DNA from: Candidatus Beckwithbacteria bacterium
Lineage (GTDB): Bacteria; Patescibacteriota; Microgenomatia; UBA1400; CG1-02-47-37
Assembly: GCA_026397255.1 (NCBI GenBank)
Contig: JAPLVF010000013.1
Location: 9,481-73,480, forward strand
Direction: 5' to 3'
Length of the DNA: 64,000 nucleotides
Shown piece after piece: positions 10,081-18,856 of the stretch. Each line of letters opens with the position of its first letter. Within the stretch, counting starts at the first letter, position 1. Position numbers and translations under genes: made by a program. Under the pieces are notes generated by a model that worked only from the letters and a program-made list of their open reading frames with translations, was not told the DNA's origin and made no database searches.

Positions 10081-10660
10081 ATCATCACTGTTAATCATTA
10101 TTTGCGTGGCCGTTATCGGCGGGCTCATGTTTTGGCGCCTTAATCCCCAATCAATCCCAATTAAGGTTATTACCGAGCCGAGTCCCGGCCCGGTGCTAAA
10201 TTTATCTGCCAACTCATCAGACGGGAAAATTTACCTGGAGATGAAGCAGAAAAAGGAAGCGAATACAATAACCTGGACCATGACAGCTAAGCAAGGTGAG
10301 GAAACGGCAAAAACAATCTGGTGGCAGACTTTGCCGGCTGATACCACTATCTCTATTCCGCTCAACTCTGTCTCCCCGGATAATAAATATATGTTTTTAA
10401 AGCAAACCGGGCCCGATAAAACCCGCTATATAGTGTTAACCACCAGCGGCAAGCCGCTGGGTTCAGGATCGCAAACAGTGGAATTTGCCGAGTTGTTCGA
10501 GCTAAAGCACCCGGAATATATTATTACCGAGGTGACAGGCTGGGGCGGAACCAACTTAATTGTGTTTAATACTGACAAAATCGCGGGCGTAATTGGCCCA
10601 TCTTTTTGGTTTGACTTGTCCGGCAAATCGTTTATTCAGCTCTCCCACCGCTTTGATTAG
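10061..10660 (+). CDS. hypothetical membrane-anchored exported protein
   Basis: N-terminal TM helix. Overlaps the L,D-transpeptidase 3' end by 20 nt and is likely co-transcribed. Confidence 0.5.
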   Translation: MVKPQAKSSLLIIICVAVIGGLMFWRLNPQSIPIKVITEPSPGPVLNLSANSSDGKIYLEMKQKKEANTITWTMTAKQGEETAKTIWWQTLPADTTISIPLNSVSPDNKYMFLKQTGPDKTRYIVLTTSGKPLGSGSQTVEFAELFELKHPEYIITEVTGWGGTNLIVFNTDKIAGVIGPSFWFDLSGKSFIQLSHRFD

Positions 10661-10661
10661 T

Positions 10662-10691
10662 TTTTACTTTACTTCCCGGCTCTTTTCACTT
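10662..10691 (-). repeat. boundary motif copy 2
   Basis: Exact 30-mer TTTTACTTTACTTCCCGGCTCTTTTCACTT in the 38 bp gap between convergent genes. Confidence 0.7.
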
Positions 10692-10698
10692 GTTCTCT

Positions 10699-11307
10699 TT
10701 AATTTTCAAATATCATTTTCTTGTAAATTTTCCGGGTAGTCTCGACATCTTTTTCGCAGTACTCACAGATTTCTTTAATCCGGCCAGCTTGATAAGCCTT
10801 AGCCACGTCTTTACCTTCGATTTCCCCTTCTTTAGGGCTGGGAATGCCTAAAACCTTAGACAGCGCGTGCAAAGAAATTTTACTTTGCAGATTCCATTTG
10901 CTCCACTCGCACATAATGTCAAAGATGGGAAAGTTACGGTAGCGGGCAAAGTTTAAGTCTTTGCTGGGCTTAACGCCTAAAATAACCGATCTTTGGTAAA
11001 TAAACCTTAAATCAAAGTCCATCAGATTAAAGCCAATAAATAAATCCGCATTTTTGGCAATAGCCCAAAAATCCGTCAGCATTTTCTTTTCGTCTCCGGA
11101 AAGAGTTTTCACCGCTTCGTCATTAACGGCATAAGAAATGCAGGCGATGCGGCCGTAAGACCCGTCCAGTCCGGTGCTTTCGACAAACTCTTCAAAAGTT
11201 CTTGGGGTATATTTACTTCTTCTTTTCCTCTTATAAATATCTTTGAGGATCTCCCTCATTTCTTCCCCTGACGGCAAAGTTTCAATATCTAAGTAGAGTT
11301 TAGTCAT
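10699..11307 (-). CDS. DnaQ-like 3'-5' exonuclease, PolB-exonuclease-domain-related
   Basis: Exo I YLDIET, Exo II-like GFNLMDFDL and Exo III-like YCEKDVETT motifs in a ~200 aa protein. Confidence 0.6.
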   Translation of the reverse strand: MTKLYLDIETLPSGEEMREILKDIYKRKRRSKYTPRTFEEFVESTGLDGSYGRIACISYAVNDEAVKTLSGDEKKMLTDFWAIAKNADLFIGFNLMDFDLRFIYQRSVILGVKPSKDLNFARYRNFPIFDIMCEWSKWNLQSKISLHALSKVLGIPSPKEGEIEGKDVAKAYQAGRIKEICEYCEKDVETTRKIYKKMIFEN

Positions 11308-11374
11308 ATTTAAATTTTACTACTAATTATTACCTTTAGTTGATCTTTAAACCACTATTCTATATATTCAAGTC

Positions 11375-11986
11375 ATGAAATATGATGAGATGTTTAATAA
11401 AGTAAGGAATTTGGAATTTGATACAGAAATGTCTGTTTGTAAATCTCATGATACGGAACTTTATTTGCTTAGACCATCTGTTCTCTCCAAGAGATTTTCC
11501 ACATATAACGTAAAAAAGAATTTTCAAATATGGCTTAGAACTGTTGCAAGAAATTTTAGACCTAATCATCTTAGGGTTTTTATTGATTTAAACTTAAGGG
11601 TAAGAAGCAGACCAGATTTAAAGGAAAAAATGTTAGTTGCCTTTGATGACATTTTCTACGGTAAAGATCCTAACGAGGTAATTCAGGGTTTGAAAAAAGA
11701 AAAATTTGAACATTTTTTGAACCCAATTGAAATAATTGCTAATTTGTCACAACTTTTCATAATTGAGCAGGCTTACTCATACAACAAAGAAAGCAATTTT
11801 GACCCTCCTACGCTTTTTTACCAAGGATGGATAAGGCAAGTTTTAGATGATATTAAAGAAATTGATAATTTGTGTATGAGTATTTCTAGGGGTCAACCTG
11901 CAGCAGCAAAATATACATCGAAAGAAAATAAAAAAAGTAATAAATTCCAGGCTAAATTAAGGCCCTTGTGGTATATTGAGGCATAG
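11375..11986 (+). CDS. hypothetical protein, candidate restriction endonuclease partner
   Basis: AT-rich ORF convergent with, and overlapping by 35 bp, the DPPY DNA methyltransferase. Possible PD-(D/E)xK-like FDD...E.K segment. No direct homology recognised. Confidence 0.35.
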   Translation: MKYDEMFNKVRNLEFDTEMSVCKSHDTELYLLRPSVLSKRFSTYNVKKNFQIWLRTVARNFRPNHLRVFIDLNLRVRSRPDLKEKMLVAFDDIFYGKDPNEVIQGLKKEKFEHFLNPIEIIANLSQLFIIEQAYSYNKESNFDPPTLFYQGWIRQVLDDIKEIDNLCMSISRGQPAAAKYTSKENKKSNKFQAKLRPLWYIEA

Positions 11987-12812
11987 AATAGTTTTCTTTC
12001 ACTAATCTAAGCTGTTTTTTCTCAAGATTGGATTTTAGCTCTTCAAATCTTTGTATTGATAAATCTAAATACTGTTTTTCAGTGTCAATTCCAATAAATT
12101 TTCTTCCATATAAATAAGCGGCTAACCCCGTAGTGGAACTGCCGGTAAAAGGATCAAGGATTAAATCACCCTTTCTAGTACTGGCTAAAACTATTCTTTT
12201 AAGCAAGTCTATAGGTTTTTGAGTCGGATGTTTTCCAAATTTTTTCTCAATCGGTTTAGGCGTATTAATTGACCAAACTGATCTCATTTGCAAGTTCGCT
12301 TTTTTTAATTGGTCTTCCGGCCAATTACCATCTTTCATCAATTTATAGTTAAAGATGTGTTTACCTTCTTTGTCTTTTCTGGCCCAAATTAGGGTTTCGT
12401 GGCTAGCGGTAAAAAAACGGCAGCTTAAATTTGGAGAGGCATTCGGCTTAAACCAAGCAATATCGTTTAATATGTGAAATTTATTAATTTCTAAGGCCAG
12501 ACCGCATTGATAAATGGAGTGATAAGTTCCACTTACCCAAATAGTTCCATTGGGTTTTAAAATCTTTTTACATAGCTTTAACCATTCTCTATGAAATTCA
12601 AAATTTTTCTTTGTTCCATTACTTAAATCCCAGTCTCCTTTTTTTACACTAACCATTTTCCCGTTTTGGCAGGTGAAACTGCCGCTGGAAAGAAAATAAG
12701 GCGGGTCGGCAAAAATCATATCCACGGAATTCTCCGGAAACTGACTCAAGAGTTTTAAAGAATTACCCAAGTAAAGCTCAAAGTTTAGTTTTTCGTAGTA
12801 AGGTTTTAACAT
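11952..12812 (-). CDS. DNA methyltransferase, N6-adenine/N4-cytosine, beta-class
   Basis: Motif IV IFADPPYFL precedes motif I ILDPFTGSSTTGLAA, the order typical of beta-class amino-MTases (N4/N6 methylase domain). Confidence 0.85.
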   Translation of the reverse strand: MLKPYYEKLNFELYLGNSLKLLSQFPENSVDMIFADPPYFLSSGSFTCQNGKMVSVKKGDWDLSNGTKKNFEFHREWLKLCKKILKPNGTIWVSGTYHSIYQCGLALEINKFHILNDIAWFKPNASPNLSCRFFTASHETLIWARKDKEGKHIFNYKLMKDGNWPEDQLKKANLQMRSVWSINTPKPIEKKFGKHPTQKPIDLLKRIVLASTRKGDLILDPFTGSSTTGLAAYLYGRKFIGIDTEKQYLDLSIQRFEELKSNLEKKQLRLVKENYSMPQYTTRALI

Positions 12813-12893
12813 ATCTTTATGGGATCGGGTTTTATTTGTATATCTTCATTAAGAACCCTTTGGCAAATTTTGTCAACAACTACGTACTTATTA

Positions 12894-12918
12894 TTTTACT
12901 TCCCTATTCTTTTCACTT
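12894..12918 (-). repeat. boundary motif copy 3 (degenerate: TTTTACTTCCCTATTCTTTTCACTT)
   Basis: Shares TTTTACTTCCC and TCTTTTCACTT with copies 1 and 2. Lies between the ImmA stop and the MTase start. Confidence 0.6.
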
Positions 12919-12926
12919 ATGATGGC

Positions 12927-13421
12927 TTAATTCCAATTAGCTAATTTATCGTATAGCTTGGTTTCTTTTAATCTCCACATCATCATATCTTTACTTACCC
13001 AGTAATTTTTTGCTAATTCACTCCAAGATAAAGAGATAAGCCGTTCCGCTTTTATCAATTGTAAAGGCACTAATAATTCGGCGGCAAATTTATTAGCGGC
13101 CACCTCATCGGGATTTTTATTTGAAAAGTCTATTGTTCTGAAACCAGAATTATGCCCCATTAAAATATGCCCCAATTCATGAGCGATCGTATACCTTATC
13201 CTTGTTTCAGGTTTTTTATTATTATATATAATCTGAGTCGTTCCAACACTAAAACCATCCTCATCACCTAAATCTTTGCCTTGAACGGAAATTTTAAAGT
13301 CTACTTGTTTTAAAATTAAGTTTAGTCGAATTGGGGGAATTTTTTGAACACTTTGCTTAATAAGATTTCTGGCAAGTTTTAAAGCAAATCCATTGTCATT
13401 TGGTTCATCTTGAAAATTCAT
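12927..13421 (-). CDS. ImmA/IrrE-family zinc metallopeptidase
   Basis: HELGHILMGH HEXXH motif in a ~160 aa protein immediately downstream of, and overlapping, an XRE HTH gene (COG2856-type arrangement). Confidence 0.8.
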   Translation of the reverse strand: MNFQDEPNDNGFALKLARNLIKQSVQKIPPIRLNLILKQVDFKISVQGKDLGDEDGFSVGTTQIIYNNKKPETRIRYTIAHELGHILMGHNSGFRTIDFSNKNPDEVAANKFAAELLVPLQLIKAERLISLSWSELAKNYWVSKDMMMWRLKETKLYDKLANWN

Positions 13422-13737
13422 CTTTTGAAAGCCTTATGGCTTCATTAATGGCTTTATTAAATTTTGGGTTTTTAAGGGCCTTTTTCGAAGCACGGAAAGA
13501 AATATGAATTGATGGAACGCTAAAACCTTCAATTAATTCTTTCAGACTAACCTGTAATTCTCTAGCAATCTTGGATAACGTTCCAAGATTATTGATTTCT
13601 CTCTCGCCACTTTCATAAAGAGCGATTAATGAGGTAGAAAGTCCAAGTTTATTCCCCAACTCCTGTTGTGACGCCCCGACAGCTTCCCTTGCTTCTTTTA
13701 TGTTTTTCCCAATTTTTTTGAAATTTAACTCCATCAT
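13405..13737 (-). CDS. HTH XRE-family transcriptional regulator
   Basis: IKEAREAVGASQQELGNKLGLSTSLIALYESGER helix-turn-helix segment. Confidence 0.85.
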   Translation of the reverse strand: MMELNFKKIGKNIKEAREAVGASQQELGNKLGLSTSLIALYESGEREINNLGTLSKIARELQVSLKELIEGFSVPSIHISFRASKKALKNPKFNKAINEAIRLSKDEFSR

Positions 13738-13759
13738 GCTAGAGTTTAAACCAAAGTTG

Positions 13760-13815
13760 AAAATTTGTCAAATCTGCTTGTTGACTTTGTAAATATTTTT
13801 GTTACAATACAGACA
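13760..13815. promoter_or_regulatory. divergent promoter/operator region between the XRE gene and the payload genes
   Basis: TTGACT -35, 16 nt spacer, TACAAT -10 on the plus strand. The -35 is overlapped by an inverted repeat TTGTCAA-N9-TTGAC. Confidence 0.4.
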
Positions 13816-13841
13816 TAGTTACTAATTATTTTAATTTAATT

Positions 13842-14207
13842 ATGGGTAAAAGTTCAGAATCTAGACGTAAAAATGAACCGGTCGTTAAATCTCGGGGGTC
13901 AACGGGAAGTTATGCCGCCAGTGGTGGTAATAATTCTATTAAACAAGACTGTCTGTTTAGTCTAAAATTTGAGCAAAAAGTCCCTACTCTCATGACTGTA
14001 ATAGTTGGTCAATACGCTGTTTTGTTGCCGGATAATTCCAATCTTTACCTAAACGTGATTATTGACGGTCAAAGTGCCGGAAGATATTCAGGTAAAATGA
14101 GCAAAAAAGTAATTAAGTGTATTAGCGAGGGCTTTGTTTACGAAGGTAAGGTCATCTCTATTAAGGATAGCTCCCTGGCAGTAATCGAAGTTAAGGGCCG
14201 TGGATGA
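13842..14207 (+). CDS. hypothetical protein (121 aa)
   Basis: First gene divergent from XRE/ImmA. Stop overlaps the next start (ATGGATGA). Confidence 0.55.
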   Translation: MGKSSESRRKNEPVVKSRGSTGSYAASGGNNSIKQDCLFSLKFEQKVPTLMTVIVGQYAVLLPDNSNLYLNVIIDGQSAGRYSGKMSKKVIKCISEGFVYEGKVISIKDSSLAVIEVKGRG

Positions 14208-15186
14208 AAAAATTACAGATCAGTTAGAATTTTGGGGTCTCAATGGTTTATCAACAGCGCGCATATCCGGTTGTCCAGTCGTTGATTATTTAGATGATTG
14301 CGACAGCGCTTGTTATCCAACAAAACCTTCAAAGTACGAAGCGCTGACGTGTGGCAGCAAAAAAGGGGCTCAATTTTTGGGAGACGCAAGGGGGGCGACA
14401 TTAAACAACATTAAAGCGTTGAGGGTAAAAATTCCAAAACTGCCAATTTTCATCCCGGAATTACAACATGGTAGCAAGTACTTAGTTAATAATACTAAAT
14501 TAGATTGGGTGGCAGTCAAAATTGACGAAGTTGTGTCAAAACATGATTTAAAAGTTGCCGCTGATATTCGTAAAAGAATAGGAATCGATTCAAAAACAAA
14601 AGTACTATTACTTGGTTACGGATCCGACCGGTTTTTAGAGAATTTATGGACAAACAGGAAGAAAATCTTTCCTCAAATCGCCAGCTTGAAAGCGGATCTT
14701 TACACGGCCATTGACTATTCAGTTTTTCTCGTTCACCCACACCTCGAGAGAGTTCTTAACGTTAAAAGAAGTTTGGTGACTTTTGATATTTTACAAAGGC
14801 TAGGAGTTCCGGTCGTGCCGCATATTTATTGGAGCGGGGAAAAAGACATGAAAAGATGGGCGTTCTGGCTGAACCAAAATTCTGGAGTAAATTTAGTGTC
14901 CATGTATTTAGGTTGGATTAGAAAAAGCGAATGGGTGAAAATATTTTCAGAGCTTAAGTGTCTAAATAAATCGCTTGAGAGAAAAATAAATTACTTGATA
15001 AGCGGGCCGGGCAATTTAACAGAAATAAAACCGTTAAAAGAAATTCTCGGAAACGTAATTTTAACAGACGCAGAATGTGCCTTGAATGCGGCACATCATA
15101 AATTAAGTCAAAATAAATTAAAAGTTACTTACTATCCATTCAAGGAAAATTTAGATTACCATACAGAATTAGTAAAAGCCGCATAA
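14200..15186 (+). CDS. hypothetical protein (328 aa)
   Basis: Translationally coupled to the 121 aa ORF. No motif I can assign with confidence. Confidence 0.55.
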   Translation: MDEKITDQLEFWGLNGLSTARISGCPVVDYLDDCDSACYPTKPSKYEALTCGSKKGAQFLGDARGATLNNIKALRVKIPKLPIFIPELQHGSKYLVNNTKLDWVAVKIDEVVSKHDLKVAADIRKRIGIDSKTKVLLLGYGSDRFLENLWTNRKKIFPQIASLKADLYTAIDYSVFLVHPHLERVLNVKRSLVTFDILQRLGVPVVPHIYWSGEKDMKRWAFWLNQNSGVNLVSMYLGWIRKSEWVKIFSELKCLNKSLERKINYLISGPGNLTEIKPLKEILGNVILTDAECALNAAHHKLSQNKLKVTYYPFKENLDYHTELVKAA

Positions 15187-15201
15187 GGGGTGAGCAACCT
15201 G

Positions 15202-15267
15202 TGATAAGATAAATTTATGAAAAAAGTGATGGTGACGGGGAGCGGAGGGTTCATTGGAAGACAGCTG
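15202..15267 (+). pseudogene. duplicated epimerase promoter/5' end, copy A (MKKVMVTGSGGFIGRQL then stop)
   Basis: TGATAAGATAAATTTATGAAAAAAGTGATGGTGACGGGGAG... nearly identical to the true epimerase start at 17987-18045. Reading frame terminates after 17 codons. Confidence 0.7.
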
Positions 15268-15280
15268 TAGGACGGAAGCA

Positions 15281-15735
15281 CTATTTATAACTAGCAGGAC
15301 AGTTTTTTGCCTTGGTAAAACCGGCTTTACGGGCTTCGGCTTCGGTGCAGAACCAACTATCGCCGTTGTGCAATTGAACATCAACCTTGTTGTAGTAACC
15401 GCAGCCAGGAAAATAATAGGTCATTTCGCCGCTGTTCTGACTGATATCAGCAGAATTTAGTTTAATGTTGCCTTTTATTTGACAATCCGAATTTTCCGGG
15501 TTAAACCTTTGAGTGCAGAGTTCGCTAAAGACCCCCAGTTTGGCCGCCCTGGCTTTTTTGGTGGCCGGCAATTAAAGCCGCCTTATTCCCGCCATATTGA
15601 CTATGAACTTCCGACCAACCAGATGCCAGCATGTTTTCATCGACAGAACCGTCTTCAGTATAAACAAGAGAGATTAATCGGCTAGAATCGCGATAAACGA
15701 CCTTGAGATAAATGTCTTTATTTGGATTTTTTGGC
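15281..15735 (-). pseudogene. thermonuclease (SNase-like) remnant with Cys-rich C-terminal domain, frameshifted and N-terminally truncated
   Basis: Upstream frame encodes LISLVYTEDGSVDENMLASGWSEV, like the SNase C-terminal half. The 96 aa ORF in another frame encodes CQIKGNI...YYFPGCGYY...WFCTEAEARKAGF. A T6 run lies at the frame junction. Confidence 0.5.
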
Positions 15736-15777
15736 TCTTGCGGCAGGCATTACTTAATTGTAACTCAAGTGCAGAAA

Positions 15778-15808
15778 TCAAGTTGTGTTAAGATAAGGAG
15801 TGTTGATG
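15778..15808 (+). repeat. partial copy A' of the epimerase upstream sequence
   Basis: ATCAAGTTGTGTTAAGATAAGGAGTGTTGATGAA versus ATCAGTTGTGTGATAAGATAAGTTTATGAA at 17971-18000. Confidence 0.5.
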
Positions 15809-15812
15809 AAGG

Positions 15813-16277
15813 TTATTTTCTCTTACTTAATGACTTAACGATTAAATTTTGAGCCACAGCCGGATCTATGTGATCGGCTTTAATGAAAAGAATTTGGCGT
15901 TCAGGAAGATATTTCTCAGGCAAAAACCGCCAAATCATAGCAGGATCAATTTTAAACTCTGCTTTGGTATCAATAGGGATAATCGAATCGCCTTGCTGCG
16001 AAAGCCCGAGATCGCCTAATATAGTGTGAAATCCTAAACTCAGGTCATTGATTAATGAACGCCAGTTTTCCCGCTCTTGAAACGTAACCGGACTAACCAG
16101 AAAATAATATCCGGGGCGGGCTTTTATTTTCTGAGCGTCTTCAGGTTTACTCAGATCACAAAAACTAATTTGTTTTTCGCCAATTGCACCAATTTCCATA
16201 ATTGAAAGAACGGTGGTTACTCGCGAGGTTTTTCTGCCTGGATGGAATAATTTATCCCAAGTTTCTTTAAAAGACAT
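15813..16277 (-). CDS. hypothetical protein (154 aa)
   Basis: Second gene of a two-gene unit bounded by epimerase-5' repeat copies. No recognisable domain. Confidence 0.55.
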   Translation of the reverse strand: MSFKETWDKLFHPGRKTSRVTTVLSIMEIGAIGEKQISFCDLSKPEDAQKIKARPGYYFLVSPVTFQERENWRSLINDLSLGFHTILGDLGLSQQGDSIIPIDTKAEFKIDPAMIWRFLPEKYLPERQILFIKADHIDPAVAQNLIVKSLSKRK

Positions 16278-16298
16278 AGATTTCGGGCAGACGGGGAA

Positions 16299-17090
16299 TT
16301 ATACCAGGTTGGGGAAGAGAAAGCCTTTGATATCTAAAAAGTCAATTTTTTTATCCTTGACAAAAATCCTGTCTTTACCACTGATATCAATTTGCCTGGG
16401 AACATAAATTAAGCCGTTAATTTCCCTTAAATCATCCGGTAATACTTGTTTCTTTCGGGAAAAAGCTGAAAGTTTATCGGTAAAATCCTTCAGCGGACTC
16501 ATCCTTTGTCGATGTAAAGCATAACTCGATTCTTTTGGTTTAACAAACAACTTTAAGATGCTTAATTTTGTTTGCTTATTTTGCTTCTCTACTAATGCCT
16601 CTAAGCGAGCTTGAGTATCATCCTTTTCCAACATTGGATTGGCGCCGCTTAAAATTAATAAACCTTCGTTATCCCCAATCACTGTTTTAACGCCGGTAAA
16701 AAATTTCCTTAATTTGAGAACGGCTTGTTTCATTGAATGAAATCTGCCTTCTCTAAATTCAATCGGCTGGTGAAGGCCAACAGCATTACCATGGTTATCT
16801 TTGGCCAACATCAGGGCGCAAAAACTGGCACCATGTATAAAAATTACGGCCGGATCTGTTTCAGTGGAAATAATATTCTCAGAATCTTTGATTTTTTCAA
16901 ATCCGGGCGTGGTTTCATAGACAGTCGGATCTGCCGAGCGAACCTTAAAGCCACTTTTAGGCAAAGATTGCTGTAAATTTTCCGGAGAGGCGTAAGCAAT
17001 TGTGGTATCAAATTTTTTTAGGACATCAAGTATAGGAGAAGGTTCAAGCGTTTGGGGTAAACCCCGGTTAATTTCAAAAAAATCCTGCAT
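16299..17090 (-). CDS. hypothetical protein (263 aa)
   Basis: First gene of the two-gene unit. No recognisable domain. Confidence 0.55.
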   Translation of the reverse strand: MQDFFEINRGLPQTLEPSPILDVLKKFDTTIAYASPENLQQSLPKSGFKVRSADPTVYETTPGFEKIKDSENIISTETDPAVIFIHGASFCALMLAKDNHGNAVGLHQPIEFREGRFHSMKQAVLKLRKFFTGVKTVIGDNEGLLILSGANPMLEKDDTQARLEALVEKQNKQTKLSILKLFVKPKESSYALHRQRMSPLKDFTDKLSAFSRKKQVLPDDLREINGLIYVPRQIDISGKDRIFVKDKKIDFLDIKGFLFPNLV

Positions 17091-17100
17091 ATTTATTATA

Positions 17101-17157
17101 TGATAAGATAAGTTTATGAAAAAAGCGATGGTGACGGGGAGCTCGGGGTTTATCTAA
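17101..17157 (+). pseudogene. duplicated epimerase promoter/5' end, copy B (MKKAMVTGSSGFI then stop)
   Basis: 53 nt almost identical to 17981-18033, then divergence and a TAA stop. Confidence 0.7.
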
Positions 17158-17243
17158 AGACACCTGATAGAAAGACTGAAAAAGGAAAAGTTTAAGAAAT
17201 TTGTCAATAGCCGCTTGACAACGTGCTATAATGAAATTACATA

Positions 17244-17311
17244 GACCCTGTTTCTGAATTGTCACCGTAAGGTGCGCGTTCTCAACTAACGTTGAGATAG
17301 GAACCAGGGTC
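17244..17311. other. structured RNA-like element (long closing stem with two internal hairpins, one with a GNRA loop)
   Basis: GACCCTGTTTCT pairs with AGGAACCAGGGTC, enclosing CACC-GTAA-GGTG and TCTCAAC-TAAC-GTTGAGA hairpins. Lies 3 nt beyond the DUF3800 stop on the minus strand. Confidence 0.3.
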
Positions 17312-17314
17312 GCT

Positions 17315-17938
17315 TTATTTAAACGGCCAAATATCTTCAATTCTTCTTGACCTTTTAAGCATAGTTAAATAATCAGAATCTTTTTTTGTAAAGTCAGAGA
17401 ACACTGCCCCAGCTACCATATCAGCCAGTTGAATCAGCGTGTTTTGTCTTGAATCCACAAACTTTAAATCTTTAAAGATTTTACTGTTCTTATTGTCTAA
17501 ACGCCTGGATAAATAAACTCTTAACTGATTCCTTAGGGTTCTCTCTCCTCTTTTATCAACTTTCAATTTTGCGTTTTTTATTGATCCGCCGCTTTGTTTC
17601 AAAACCTGCATGATTACATAGTTATAAAAATCTTCTTTATTGCTTCTTAATCTTTGGCTGCGAATTAATGCTTTGTTAACCATAATGGCTCTAACCCTAA
17701 ACTTAAATGATCTGATAGCGTTGAAAAAGGCTTTGCGAAATTTTCTGTTGGTTTTATTGAACTTAAATTCGTATTTATCTTGTAATTTCAGTTTTCTCCT
17801 TAGTTCTTTAATTGCCACCGAGGTCTTTTCTGCTTCCAGGTTGTCATTGAAAATAACTAAGGCCAACACAAAAATATCGCTTGAGCCTTTTTGGAGCTTA
17901 AAACCTGGATCTCCGGATTCGTCAATAAAAACTATCAT
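17315..17938 (-). CDS. DUF3800 family protein
   Basis: N-terminal MIVFIDESGDPGF matches the conserved iY/F-IDESG start remembered for DUF3800 proteins. Confidence 0.65.
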   Translation of the reverse strand: MIVFIDESGDPGFKLQKGSSDIFVLALVIFNDNLEAEKTSVAIKELRRKLKLQDKYEFKFNKTNRKFRKAFFNAIRSFKFRVRAIMVNKALIRSQRLRSNKEDFYNYVIMQVLKQSGGSIKNAKLKVDKRGERTLRNQLRVYLSRRLDNKNSKIFKDLKFVDSRQNTLIQLADMVAGAVFSDFTKKDSDYLTMLKRSRRIEDIWPFK

Positions 17939-17995
17939 TAAATTATTTTATCACCTAAGGCCTGAAAAATATCAGTTGTGTGATAAGATAAGTTT

Positions 17996-18856
17996 ATGAA
18001 AAAAGCGATGGTGACGGGGAGTTCGGGGTTTATTGGGAGAAAACTGATCAAGAGATTACAAAAAGACGGGGTGGAGGTAGTGGGGTTTTCTAGAAAAGAG
18101 GGGAAAAATATCACCAAAAAGGAAGATTTTGCGGGGTTGGGAAAGGTGGACACGGTGTTTCATCTGGCGGCAGTGTCGGGGTATAAGGACTGTGCGGAAA
18201 ACACCGGTTTGGCGTATGAGGTGAATGTGGGCGGAACAACTAATGTTTTAGAATATTGCCGGAAAAGCAAGGCAAAATTAATTTTTCCCAGCACGTATGT
18301 TTATGACCAGCCTTATTCAGAGGTGAAAACGGAAACGAGTGCGACGAAGCCGACGACGCATTATTCTTTCACGAAATTCTTAGGCGAAGAACTCTGTCGT
18401 TTTTACACGCGGGTATTTAAAGTGAACAGTTTGATTTTACGAACAGCCAATGTGTTCGGATTTGGCCAAGAAGACAAGTATTTGGTGCCGATTATCTTTA
18501 ATAATATTCTGGCAGGCCGAGAGTTTGAGCTGACCAAGCCGGAAATTGAACGGAGTTTTATTTATATTGCTGATTTGGTGGAGGCTTATGTCCGTCTGGC
18601 AGAAGCGAATAGCGAAAGCGGAGAAACATATAATATCGGACCGGAGAAGCCAACAACTTTGCAGGAATTGGTGCAGGCGATGGAGAAGGTAACCGGAAAG
18701 AAAGCCCGGGTAAAATATTCCGGCCAAGAGCGGCCAAATGAAGTGAATTTAAACCGGGTGGATACAGGTAAGATGAAAGCAAAACTTAACTGGCAGCCGG
18801 AAATCAGTTTAGAGCAGGGATTAAAACAATATCTGGAAAAACTTCATGAAGTTTAA
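17996..18856 (+). CDS. NAD-dependent epimerase/dehydratase (extended SDR)
   Basis: GSSGFIGRKL Rossmann motif and YxxxK (YSFTK). This is the intact copy of the repeated 5' end. Confidence 0.85.
   Translation: MKKAMVTGSSGFIGRKLIKRLQKDGVEVVGFSRKEGKNITKKEDFAGLGKVDTVFHLAAVSGYKDCAENTGLAYEVNVGGTTNVLEYCRKSKAKLIFPSTYVYDQPYSEVKTETSATKPTTHYSFTKFLGEELCRFYTRVFKVNSLILRTANVFGFGQEDKYLVPIIFNNILAGREFELTKPEIERSFIYIADLVEAYVRLAEANSESGETYNIGPEKPTTLQELVQAMEKVTGKKARVKYSGQERPNEVNLNRVDTGKMKAKLNWQPEISLEQGLKQYLEKLHEV

Follow-up and report, generated by a model that had tools for sequence, protein, structure and literature searches.

A predicted Cys-His hydrolase and a small neighbouring protein in a block bounded by copies of an epimerase 5' end within a variable island of Candidatus Beckwithbacteria

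Composite SCC and pseudo-SCC elements at orfX consist of tandem blocks with direct repeats derived from one target gene end, and some of these blocks have no recombinase of their own. In SCC, Ccr recombinases generate these repeats as precise att cores, at the 3' end of the gene. Serial displacement by anchored illegitimate recombination is another route with precedent, as proposed for Vibrio T6SS and Rhs loci (PMC5361080). On the enzymatic side, the catalytic triads of the structurally related cysteine hydrolases CheD (C27/H44/T21) and NTAN1 (C75/H92/S69) have been described, and the third triad residue varies in the superfamily, with CNF1 using a backbone carbonyl (PMC7022378).

Here, two adjacent genes, A and B, from a metagenome-assembled genome (MAG) of Candidatus Beckwithbacteria (CPR) are compared with these systems. 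They lie in the window, the whole stretch of 64,000 nt that was analysed, which belongs to a contig of 358,919 bp. What is new is a rare family of predicted Cys-His hydrolases, the small protein B, and an example of stepwise island growth. As a joint reading, we hold it on the whole probable that A and B are real and functionally independent genes, that both arrived as one block, along with a since decayed nuclease gene, by insertion at an epimerase gene's 5' end, that A is a Cys-His amidohydrolase, and that the bounding repeats are pseudogenised epimerase copies.

Genes A and B and their predicted products

Gene A (16299..17090, minus strand; NTZ93_02620) and gene B (15813..16277, minus strand; NTZ93_02615) start with ATG and encode hypothetical proteins of 263 and 154 aa, respectively. 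The spacer between them (16278..16298, minus strand) is 21 nt long and contains no terminator-like site, and re-derivation of the coordinates returned both open reading frames exactly as a preliminary description of this DNA had given them. A and B are real genes, since both have conserved homologues, with N-termini in the family alignments that agree with the called starts. The tight spacing and the lack of an intervening terminator make co-transcription of A and B in the Beckwithbacteria MAG probable. A promoter-like site ahead of A (17095..17122, minus strand; TTTTCA-16-TATAAT, 10 of 12 consensus positions) ends 4 nt before the ATG and has its -35 element within the second repeat copy described below; it is a consensus match only, and such sites are no more numerous in the region than expected from shuffled sequence.

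Neither protein matched a family in Pfam, NCBIfam, PADLOC or PHROGs. The earlier statement that no motif could be assigned thus stands at the sequence level, but it missed a Cys-His catalytic signature in A and a predicted fold of the CheD/NTAN1/CNF1 kind. When 5.8 billion protein clusters were searched with a word filter, the A family came to 12 members with 47–60% identity to A, a count that is a lower bound given the word filter. The alignment of these 12 sequences displayed the motif STExDPAV..GASxCxLMLAKDxxGNAVGxHQP, in which C91, H107, D79, S89, K97, D98 and N102 were invariant (12/12). H107 is the only invariant His of the family, as H162 is nearly invariant and is replaced by Arg in A itself. 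C91 and H107 are located on consecutive predicted strands, 90–97 and 103–110.

The structure of A was modelled with moderate confidence (pLDDT 76, built on the 12 sequences), and the predicted fold corresponds to the alpha-beta-beta sandwich common to CheD, NTAN1, YfiH, CNF1 and BLF1. Its best fold matches were CheD and NTAN1, both scoring 8.9, followed by YlmD (7.5), YfiH (6.5), CNFy/CNF1 (5.3–5.6) and BLF1 (4.7), with the next unrelated match at 4.0. In an hhalign comparison with the CheD chain (2F9Z), DPAVIFIHGASFC of A was placed on NPGVIVTLGLGSC of CheD, C91 on the catalytic C27, D98 on D34, and SGANP on AGGASM, all in a weak alignment (E 0.03–0.06); global alignment of the A core with CheD was unsuccessful, and the usable part is local, around the Cys strand. 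The Cys and His are 16 residues apart in A vs 17 in both CheD and NTAN1. Searching the 12 family members against Pfam at E values up to 10 detected neither CheD nor Cu-oxidase_4 and returned scattered noise only, and the PDB sequence matches of the A profile were discarded as chance matches.

[quoted passage not shown] The nucleophile would be Cys91, with His107 from the adjacent beta-strand serving as general base. The bond hydrolysed would be an amide, for which the side chain of a Gln or Asn residue of some protein or peptide is the likeliest candidate; our leading guess is a protein or peptide Gln/Asn deamidase. The position equivalent to T21 of CheD is I85 in A and is occupied by I, L or M across the family, and the invariant S89, two residues before the Cys, may replace the missing Ser/Thr of the triad.

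A different assignment within the same superfamily would make A a hydrolase of small molecules or cell-wall precursors of the YfiH/PgeF/YlmD type, with a housekeeping role in editing nucleosides or peptidoglycan precursors. In the fold comparison, YlmD and YfiH, which act on small molecules or peptidoglycan precursors, come close to the scores of the protein deamidases, and this keeps the assignment in consideration as an unlikely one. The active site of YfiH and YlmD is a His-Cys-His triad. YfiH coordinates a zinc ion in its active site (PMC7022378). The single invariant His of the A family, with the second candidate replaced by Arg in A, argues against a metal site of the YfiH type (PF02578). 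The failure to detect Cu-oxidase_4 even at E 10 points in the same direction. Judged by the composition of its predicted active site, A is not of the YfiH type, and the Cys-His amidohydrolase reading is retained.

Protein B is of another kind. A word-filtered search recovered only B itself, and an exhaustive phmmer search of 1.84 billion representatives gave 28 matches with 27–49% identity, mostly of 140–170 aa with a few shorter fragments. One of them, P0017 (3501 aa, with 19 stretches matching B), was rejected as a repeat-protein artefact, leaving 27 distant relatives. G56 is the sole invariant residue of the family alignment. Hydrophobic residues, Gly and Pro account for most of the conserved positions, and among polar residues D41 alone is well conserved. 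This shortage of conserved polar residues suitable for catalysis argues against an enzyme, and B is most likely a binding or structural protein. It was confidently modelled as a small alpha/beta protein, and no structural match was found for the model, so that B may be taken as a candidate for a new fold family.

The repeats and the insertion history of the island

A and B lie between two repeat copies, as the preliminary description had noted; the repeat is direct and present three times. Copy 1 (15190-15287, plus strand, with the decayed epimerase stretch at 15200..15267) and copy 2 (17089-17186, plus strand) each hold a decayed epimerase promoter and 5' end, translated as MKKVMVTGSGGFIGRQL* and MKKAMVTGSSGFI*RHLIERLKKE, respectively (asterisk, stop codon). 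Copy 3 (17969-18066, plus strand) runs into an intact NAD-dependent epimerase gene (17996-18856, plus strand; Pfam Epimerase, E 1e-42). The repeat is highly significant against shuffled sequence: allowing one mismatch, a 26-nt core is present three times vs none expected (100 shuffles), and self-BLAST of the repeat gave 96, 77 and 74 bits, whereas 30 shuffles that preserved composition reached no more than 31.6 bits.

The intact epimerase gene is the source of the repeat, which comprises 16–19 nt before the epimerase ATG and the first 17–24 codons. Its upstream part holds TGATAAGAT, resembling an extended -10 element. The left edge is alike in all three copies, at about -17 to -19 nt from the ATG, and the right ends are unequal, since similarity to the intact gene stops past codon 17 in copy 1 and continues through codon 24 in copy 2, where the intact gene reads MKKAMVTGSSGFIGRKLIKRLQKD. 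Copy 2 contains an in-frame stop as codon 14. Compared with the intact gene, it differs at 5, 1 and 9 sites in codon positions 1, 2 and 3, and half of its codon changes are synonymous. This third-position bias, together with the synonymous half, identifies copy 2 as a once-functional, diverged allele rather than an att arm. On these sequence comparisons, copies 1 and 2 are the pseudogenised 5' ends of epimerase alleles, and the DNA between the copies would represent two successively inserted blocks.

Block 1 (about 15268-17088, 1.8 kb) contains a nuclease-like remnant, B and A, all on the minus strand. The remnant, as the third element of the A/B block (15281..15760, minus strand), is composed of a 96-aa sunset-domain open reading frame (15281-15571; NCBIfam sunset domain, E 2.7e-9) preceded by an SNase-like sequence that frame translations showed to be frameshifted and N-terminally truncated, and that matched Pfam SNase weakly after repair (E 0.061). 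Together they are probably a decayed nuclease gene. An SNase gene near the A homologue in locus L001 was considered as a counterpart and rejected, as the two have no similarity.

Block 2 (about 17187-17968), between copies 2 and 3, contains a DUF3800 gene (17315-17938, minus strand; Pfam DUF3800, E 4.9e-19) and, on the opposite strand, a full-length DUF3800-IX RNA (17244-17315, plus strand; Rfam RF02968, 64.1 bits vs a gathering score of 36.8). The DUF3800-IX motif class is a known but unexplained association of gene and RNA (PMC5737381). The variable island around A and B further carries restriction-modification (R-M), XRE/ImmA and DUF4417 genes. Among the neighbours named earlier, the N6_N4 methylase, XRE, ImmA/M78 and DUF3800 genes were confirmed, but the open reading frame beside the methylase, presumed to encode the restriction enzyme, matched no family in family-profile scans.

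How such blocks came to be stacked may be explained in two ways. In the first, an incoming fragment would recombine homologously within the 5' end of the epimerase gene, and its other end would join illegitimately, as in homology-facilitated illegitimate recombination. Each insertion would leave behind a pseudogenised epimerase promoter with the first 17–24 codons, and at least two insertions would be needed, with the block of nuclease, B and A entering first and that of DUF3800 and its RNA second. The mechanism is reconstructed from the arrangement of the repeats, and the history from one locus.

In the second, the blocks would be mobile cassettes lacking a recombinase, integrated site-specifically at an att site over the epimerase promoter and start by a recombinase acting in trans, so that the three repeats would be attL, an internal att and attR, as in pseudo-SCC elements accreted in tandem at orfX. 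Several observations agree with it: the three direct repeats share a near-identical 42-nt core (38–41 of 42 positions identical between copies) with divergent, decaying flanks; their left edge is common to all; and the intervals contain compact units, in one case the recognised pair of DUF3800 and DUF3800-IX. A trans-acting recombinase could be encoded elsewhere in the 359-kb contig. The direct repeats derived from a target gene end, three epimerase copies, are indeed what an att-flanked island would present, but no cognate recombinase was found among the island open reading frames, and the extents of the repeats are not identical. No recombinase or integrase was found among the island genes between 10.7 and 18 kb, nor any tRNA within the window. 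Beyond the core, the changes fall on third positions along the codon structure, as in diverged gene copies and not in att arms, and the core itself spans a promoter and a GxxGxxG N-terminus that selection would conserve anyway. The repeat core was looked for in the genome and metagenome collections and had no match there, nor did a related genome turn up whose site is empty or carries other cargo. An integron cassette fits no better, as the boundaries are direct copies of a gene 5' end, not attC-like palindromes, and no integrase was found in the island.

On these grounds site-specific integration of cassettes is distinctly unlikely. We favour one-sided homologous recombination over precise site-specific integration because of the missing recombinase and tRNA, the unequal right ends and the codon-structured divergence. 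Of the earlier description as a repeat-bounded cassette, the inserted block bounded by repeats in a variable island remains, but the repeats are copies of an epimerase 5' end and no cassette signal.

Association of A with B and the defence reading

The preliminary description regarded A and B as a two-gene module and proposed looking for the pair across metagenomes. Homologue loci were compared for this pairing, comprising 11 contigs with A homologues in five distinct contexts (L001; L002, L003 and L018; L004-L006; L014; L015-L017) and seven loci with B homologues (L007-L013). None of the five A contexts contained a B-family gene, and none of the seven B loci an A-family gene. Family HMMs run on six-frame translations of loci L001-L013 found A and B together only in the window. 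Since most of the homologue contigs span 1–4 kb, these counts may overlook a partner lying beyond 2 kb. An all-against-all comparison of the open reading frames within 2.5 kb showed no neighbour common to the B loci; extended to L014, L015 and L018, it again gave A loci without a B-family gene and with neighbours specific to each subclade.

Among the closest relatives of A (58–60% identity), the gene order transketolase, A, TspO, GreA occurs in two independent assemblies (L002, L018), with overlapping stop and start codons. No transketolase, TspO or GreA gene was found within the window, so that A here has a displaced position when compared with its nearest relatives. In an N-terminally extended clade (L001, L004, L015), A follows a conserved glycine-rich membrane protein of 91–93 aa. 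A conserved convergent gene downstream of A was considered and rejected, as the 161–185 aa neighbours in L004, L014 and L015 lack homology among themselves. The B homologue in L012 lies after ftsA-ftsZ and before an SLT gene, and that in L011 between genes with RibD_C and Cas4 domains. The A profile detected one locus in the metagenome contig collection and nothing in the genome and viral contig collections, and neither A nor B gave a tblastn match in phages or plasmids.

These counts do not support A and B as a module, and the two are probably functionally independent genes rather than a conserved pair. Widespread singletons in conserved housekeeping contexts had been named beforehand as the pattern that would speak against the module. 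The homologues are largely of this nature, being singletons that in one clade belong to the transketolase-A-TspO-GreA block, but they are rare and not widespread. The co-orientation, tight spacing and absence of a terminator at the present locus are compatible with a lineage-specific functional pairing.

A role in defence or toxin immunity, proposed from the position in the island, found no support either. A and B gave no match in PADLOC-DB 2.0 at E values up to 0.1. Of six island proteins searched against the same database, only the DUF3800 protein matched well (candidate PDC-M04A, E 1.6e-17), and a 121-aa protein matched candidate PDC-M21C marginally (E 0.0058). That A is a deamidase toxin like CNF1 or BLF1 and B its cognate neutralising protein, in an island for defence or competition, is improbable and is not supported: the predicted fold of A, which includes the deamidase toxins CNF1, CNFy and BLF1, keeps the toxin reading from being absurd, B is small, downstream at 21 nt, co-oriented without a terminator between and free of a catalytic signature as is typical of immunity proteins, and the island carries R-M, XRE/ImmA and DUF3800 genes, yet the conserved adjacency that such a pair calls for is absent from every A context and every B locus compared. 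Still less probable is a reading in which the epimerase promoter and 5' end would be a dedicated CPR capture site stacking recombinase-less modules, such as DUF3800 with its structured RNA, each bringing a fresh epimerase promoter and start, and A and B would be a newly assembled pair of deamidase and modulator like CheD and CheC.

Comparison with described systems

If the assignment of A is true, the family would form a previously unrecognised bacterial branch of the Cys-His deamidases represented by CheD, NTAN1, CNF1 and BLF1. A deamidase-like protein in an organism, and at homologue loci, where no chemotaxis genes were seen would then prompt one to ask which amide, on a protein or peptide, undergoes editing in genomes reduced like these. 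The repeats, for their part, point to a variable island of a CPR bacterium growing as one-sided recombination recurs at the start of one gene, and they caution that a repeat-bounded segment need not be a mobile cassette. Current understanding is not overturned by these results, and their main practical consequence is that the proposed module for defence or toxin immunity is unsupported.

On its predicted model, A is structurally related to CheD and NTAN1 and a member of neither family. Compared with CheD (PDB 2F9Z; PF03975), A is 100 residues longer, with a conserved N-terminal extension of about 70 aa and a low-confidence insert at 195–214, has a hydrophobic residue in place of Thr21, and shows no Pfam CheD match at E 10; chemotaxis genes (cheA/W/C, MCPs) were found neither at the loci of A homologues nor in the examined region of the window. 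NTAN1 (PDB 6A0E) is eukaryotic and has no sequence-level match to A, in which the equivalent of Ser69 is not conserved. With the glutamine-deamidase toxins CNF1/CNFy and BLF1, A would share the predicted fold and the Cys-His chemistry (PMC7022378, PMC8960835).

For the island, the closest likeness is to the serial displacement arrays of T6SS effector-immunity genes in V. cholerae and of Rhs orphan strings, where a conserved gene end serves as the recombination anchor, and insertions displace older material and leave behind direct repeats, which are truncated and diverged anchor copies (PMC5361080). The anchor here differs in being the promoter and 5' end of a sugar epimerase gene instead of a toxin gene, and the cargo is heterogeneous, consisting of a predicted hydrolase, a small protein, a nuclease remnant, and DUF3800 with its RNA. 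In contrast to SCC and pseudo-SCC elements, the island shows no recombinase, and its repeats end at unequal points. The bounding repeats are closer in kind to the orphaned copies of gene ends found in serial displacement arrays than to integron attC or precise att sites.

A candidate partner of the A family

In the subclade of the A family (homologues of A, the 263-aa predicted Cys-His amidohydrolase) that carries an N-terminal extension, a glycine-rich protein of 91-93 aa always precedes A, as found in three contigs with A homologues (L001, 4329-4610; L004, 2051-2332; L015, 2217-2492). This protein, conserved at 70-87% identity, matches no Pfam family and probably spans the membrane. If the A family has a functional partner, this protein is a better candidate for that role than B, the 154-aa gene beside A in the window.

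Composition and repeats of the island

The island (window 10699-18000) splits a glycosylation and cell-envelope gene cluster, both flanks of which contain glycosyltransferases, methyltransferases, epimerases, and a probable radical-SAM-type enzyme. GC content is 31-35% in parts of the island, namely in the genes for ImmA, DUF3800, the methylase, and the presumed restriction enzyme, compared with 40% across the window. The composition of A and B (38-39%) is ordinary.

There is a second direct repeat of 55 nt, whose two copies (10658-10712 and 12885-12939) share 71% identity; their alignment scores 37.9 bits, where 30 shuffles reached no more than 31.6. Between them lie a PolB-exo-like gene, a 203-aa ORF without a family, and an N6_N4 methylase gene, next to which the 203-aa ORF is presumed to encode the restriction enzyme. 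This second repeat pair around a set of genes suggests that the island may be made up of several repeat-bounded blocks.

Directly left of repeat copy 1 and adjoining the divergent XRE/ImmA pair, a 121-aa ORF and a gene for a 328-aa protein (13842-15186, plus strand), whose start the ORF overlaps by 8 nt, form a possible two-gene unit, the larger product of which gave a sub-threshold match to DUF4417 (E 4e-6, 26.9 bits, cut-off 28.9). Downstream of B, the segment 15281-15760 (minus strand) looks like a decaying nuclease gene, in which a 96-aa ORF with a sunset domain (NF051437, E 2.7e-9) follows an SNase-like remnant bearing a frameshift and an N-terminal truncation; the hand-repaired remnant sequence matched Pfam SNase with an E of 0.061.

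Promoter-like sequence and the DUF3800 block

Within 17979-17998, and at equivalent positions in the other repeat copies, the sequence TGATAAGAT is similar to an extended -10 element. Only about 6 nt separate it from the epimerase ATG downstream, and the epimerase start lacks a Shine-Dalgarno sequence, which together suggest a leaderless transcript. A similar arrangement precedes A, where TATAAT ends 4 nt ahead of the ATG, and leaderless expression may be common across the Beckwithbacteria genome.

The space from repeat copy 2 to copy 3 is filled exactly by the DUF3800 gene (17315-17938, minus strand) and the adjoining, convergently oriented DUF3800-IX RNA (17244-17315, plus strand). DUF3800-associated RNAs have been reported without a known function (PMC5737381), and the RNA in this block matches Rfam RF02968 over its full length with an E of 2e-12 and a score of 64.1 bits, against a gathering score of 36.8.
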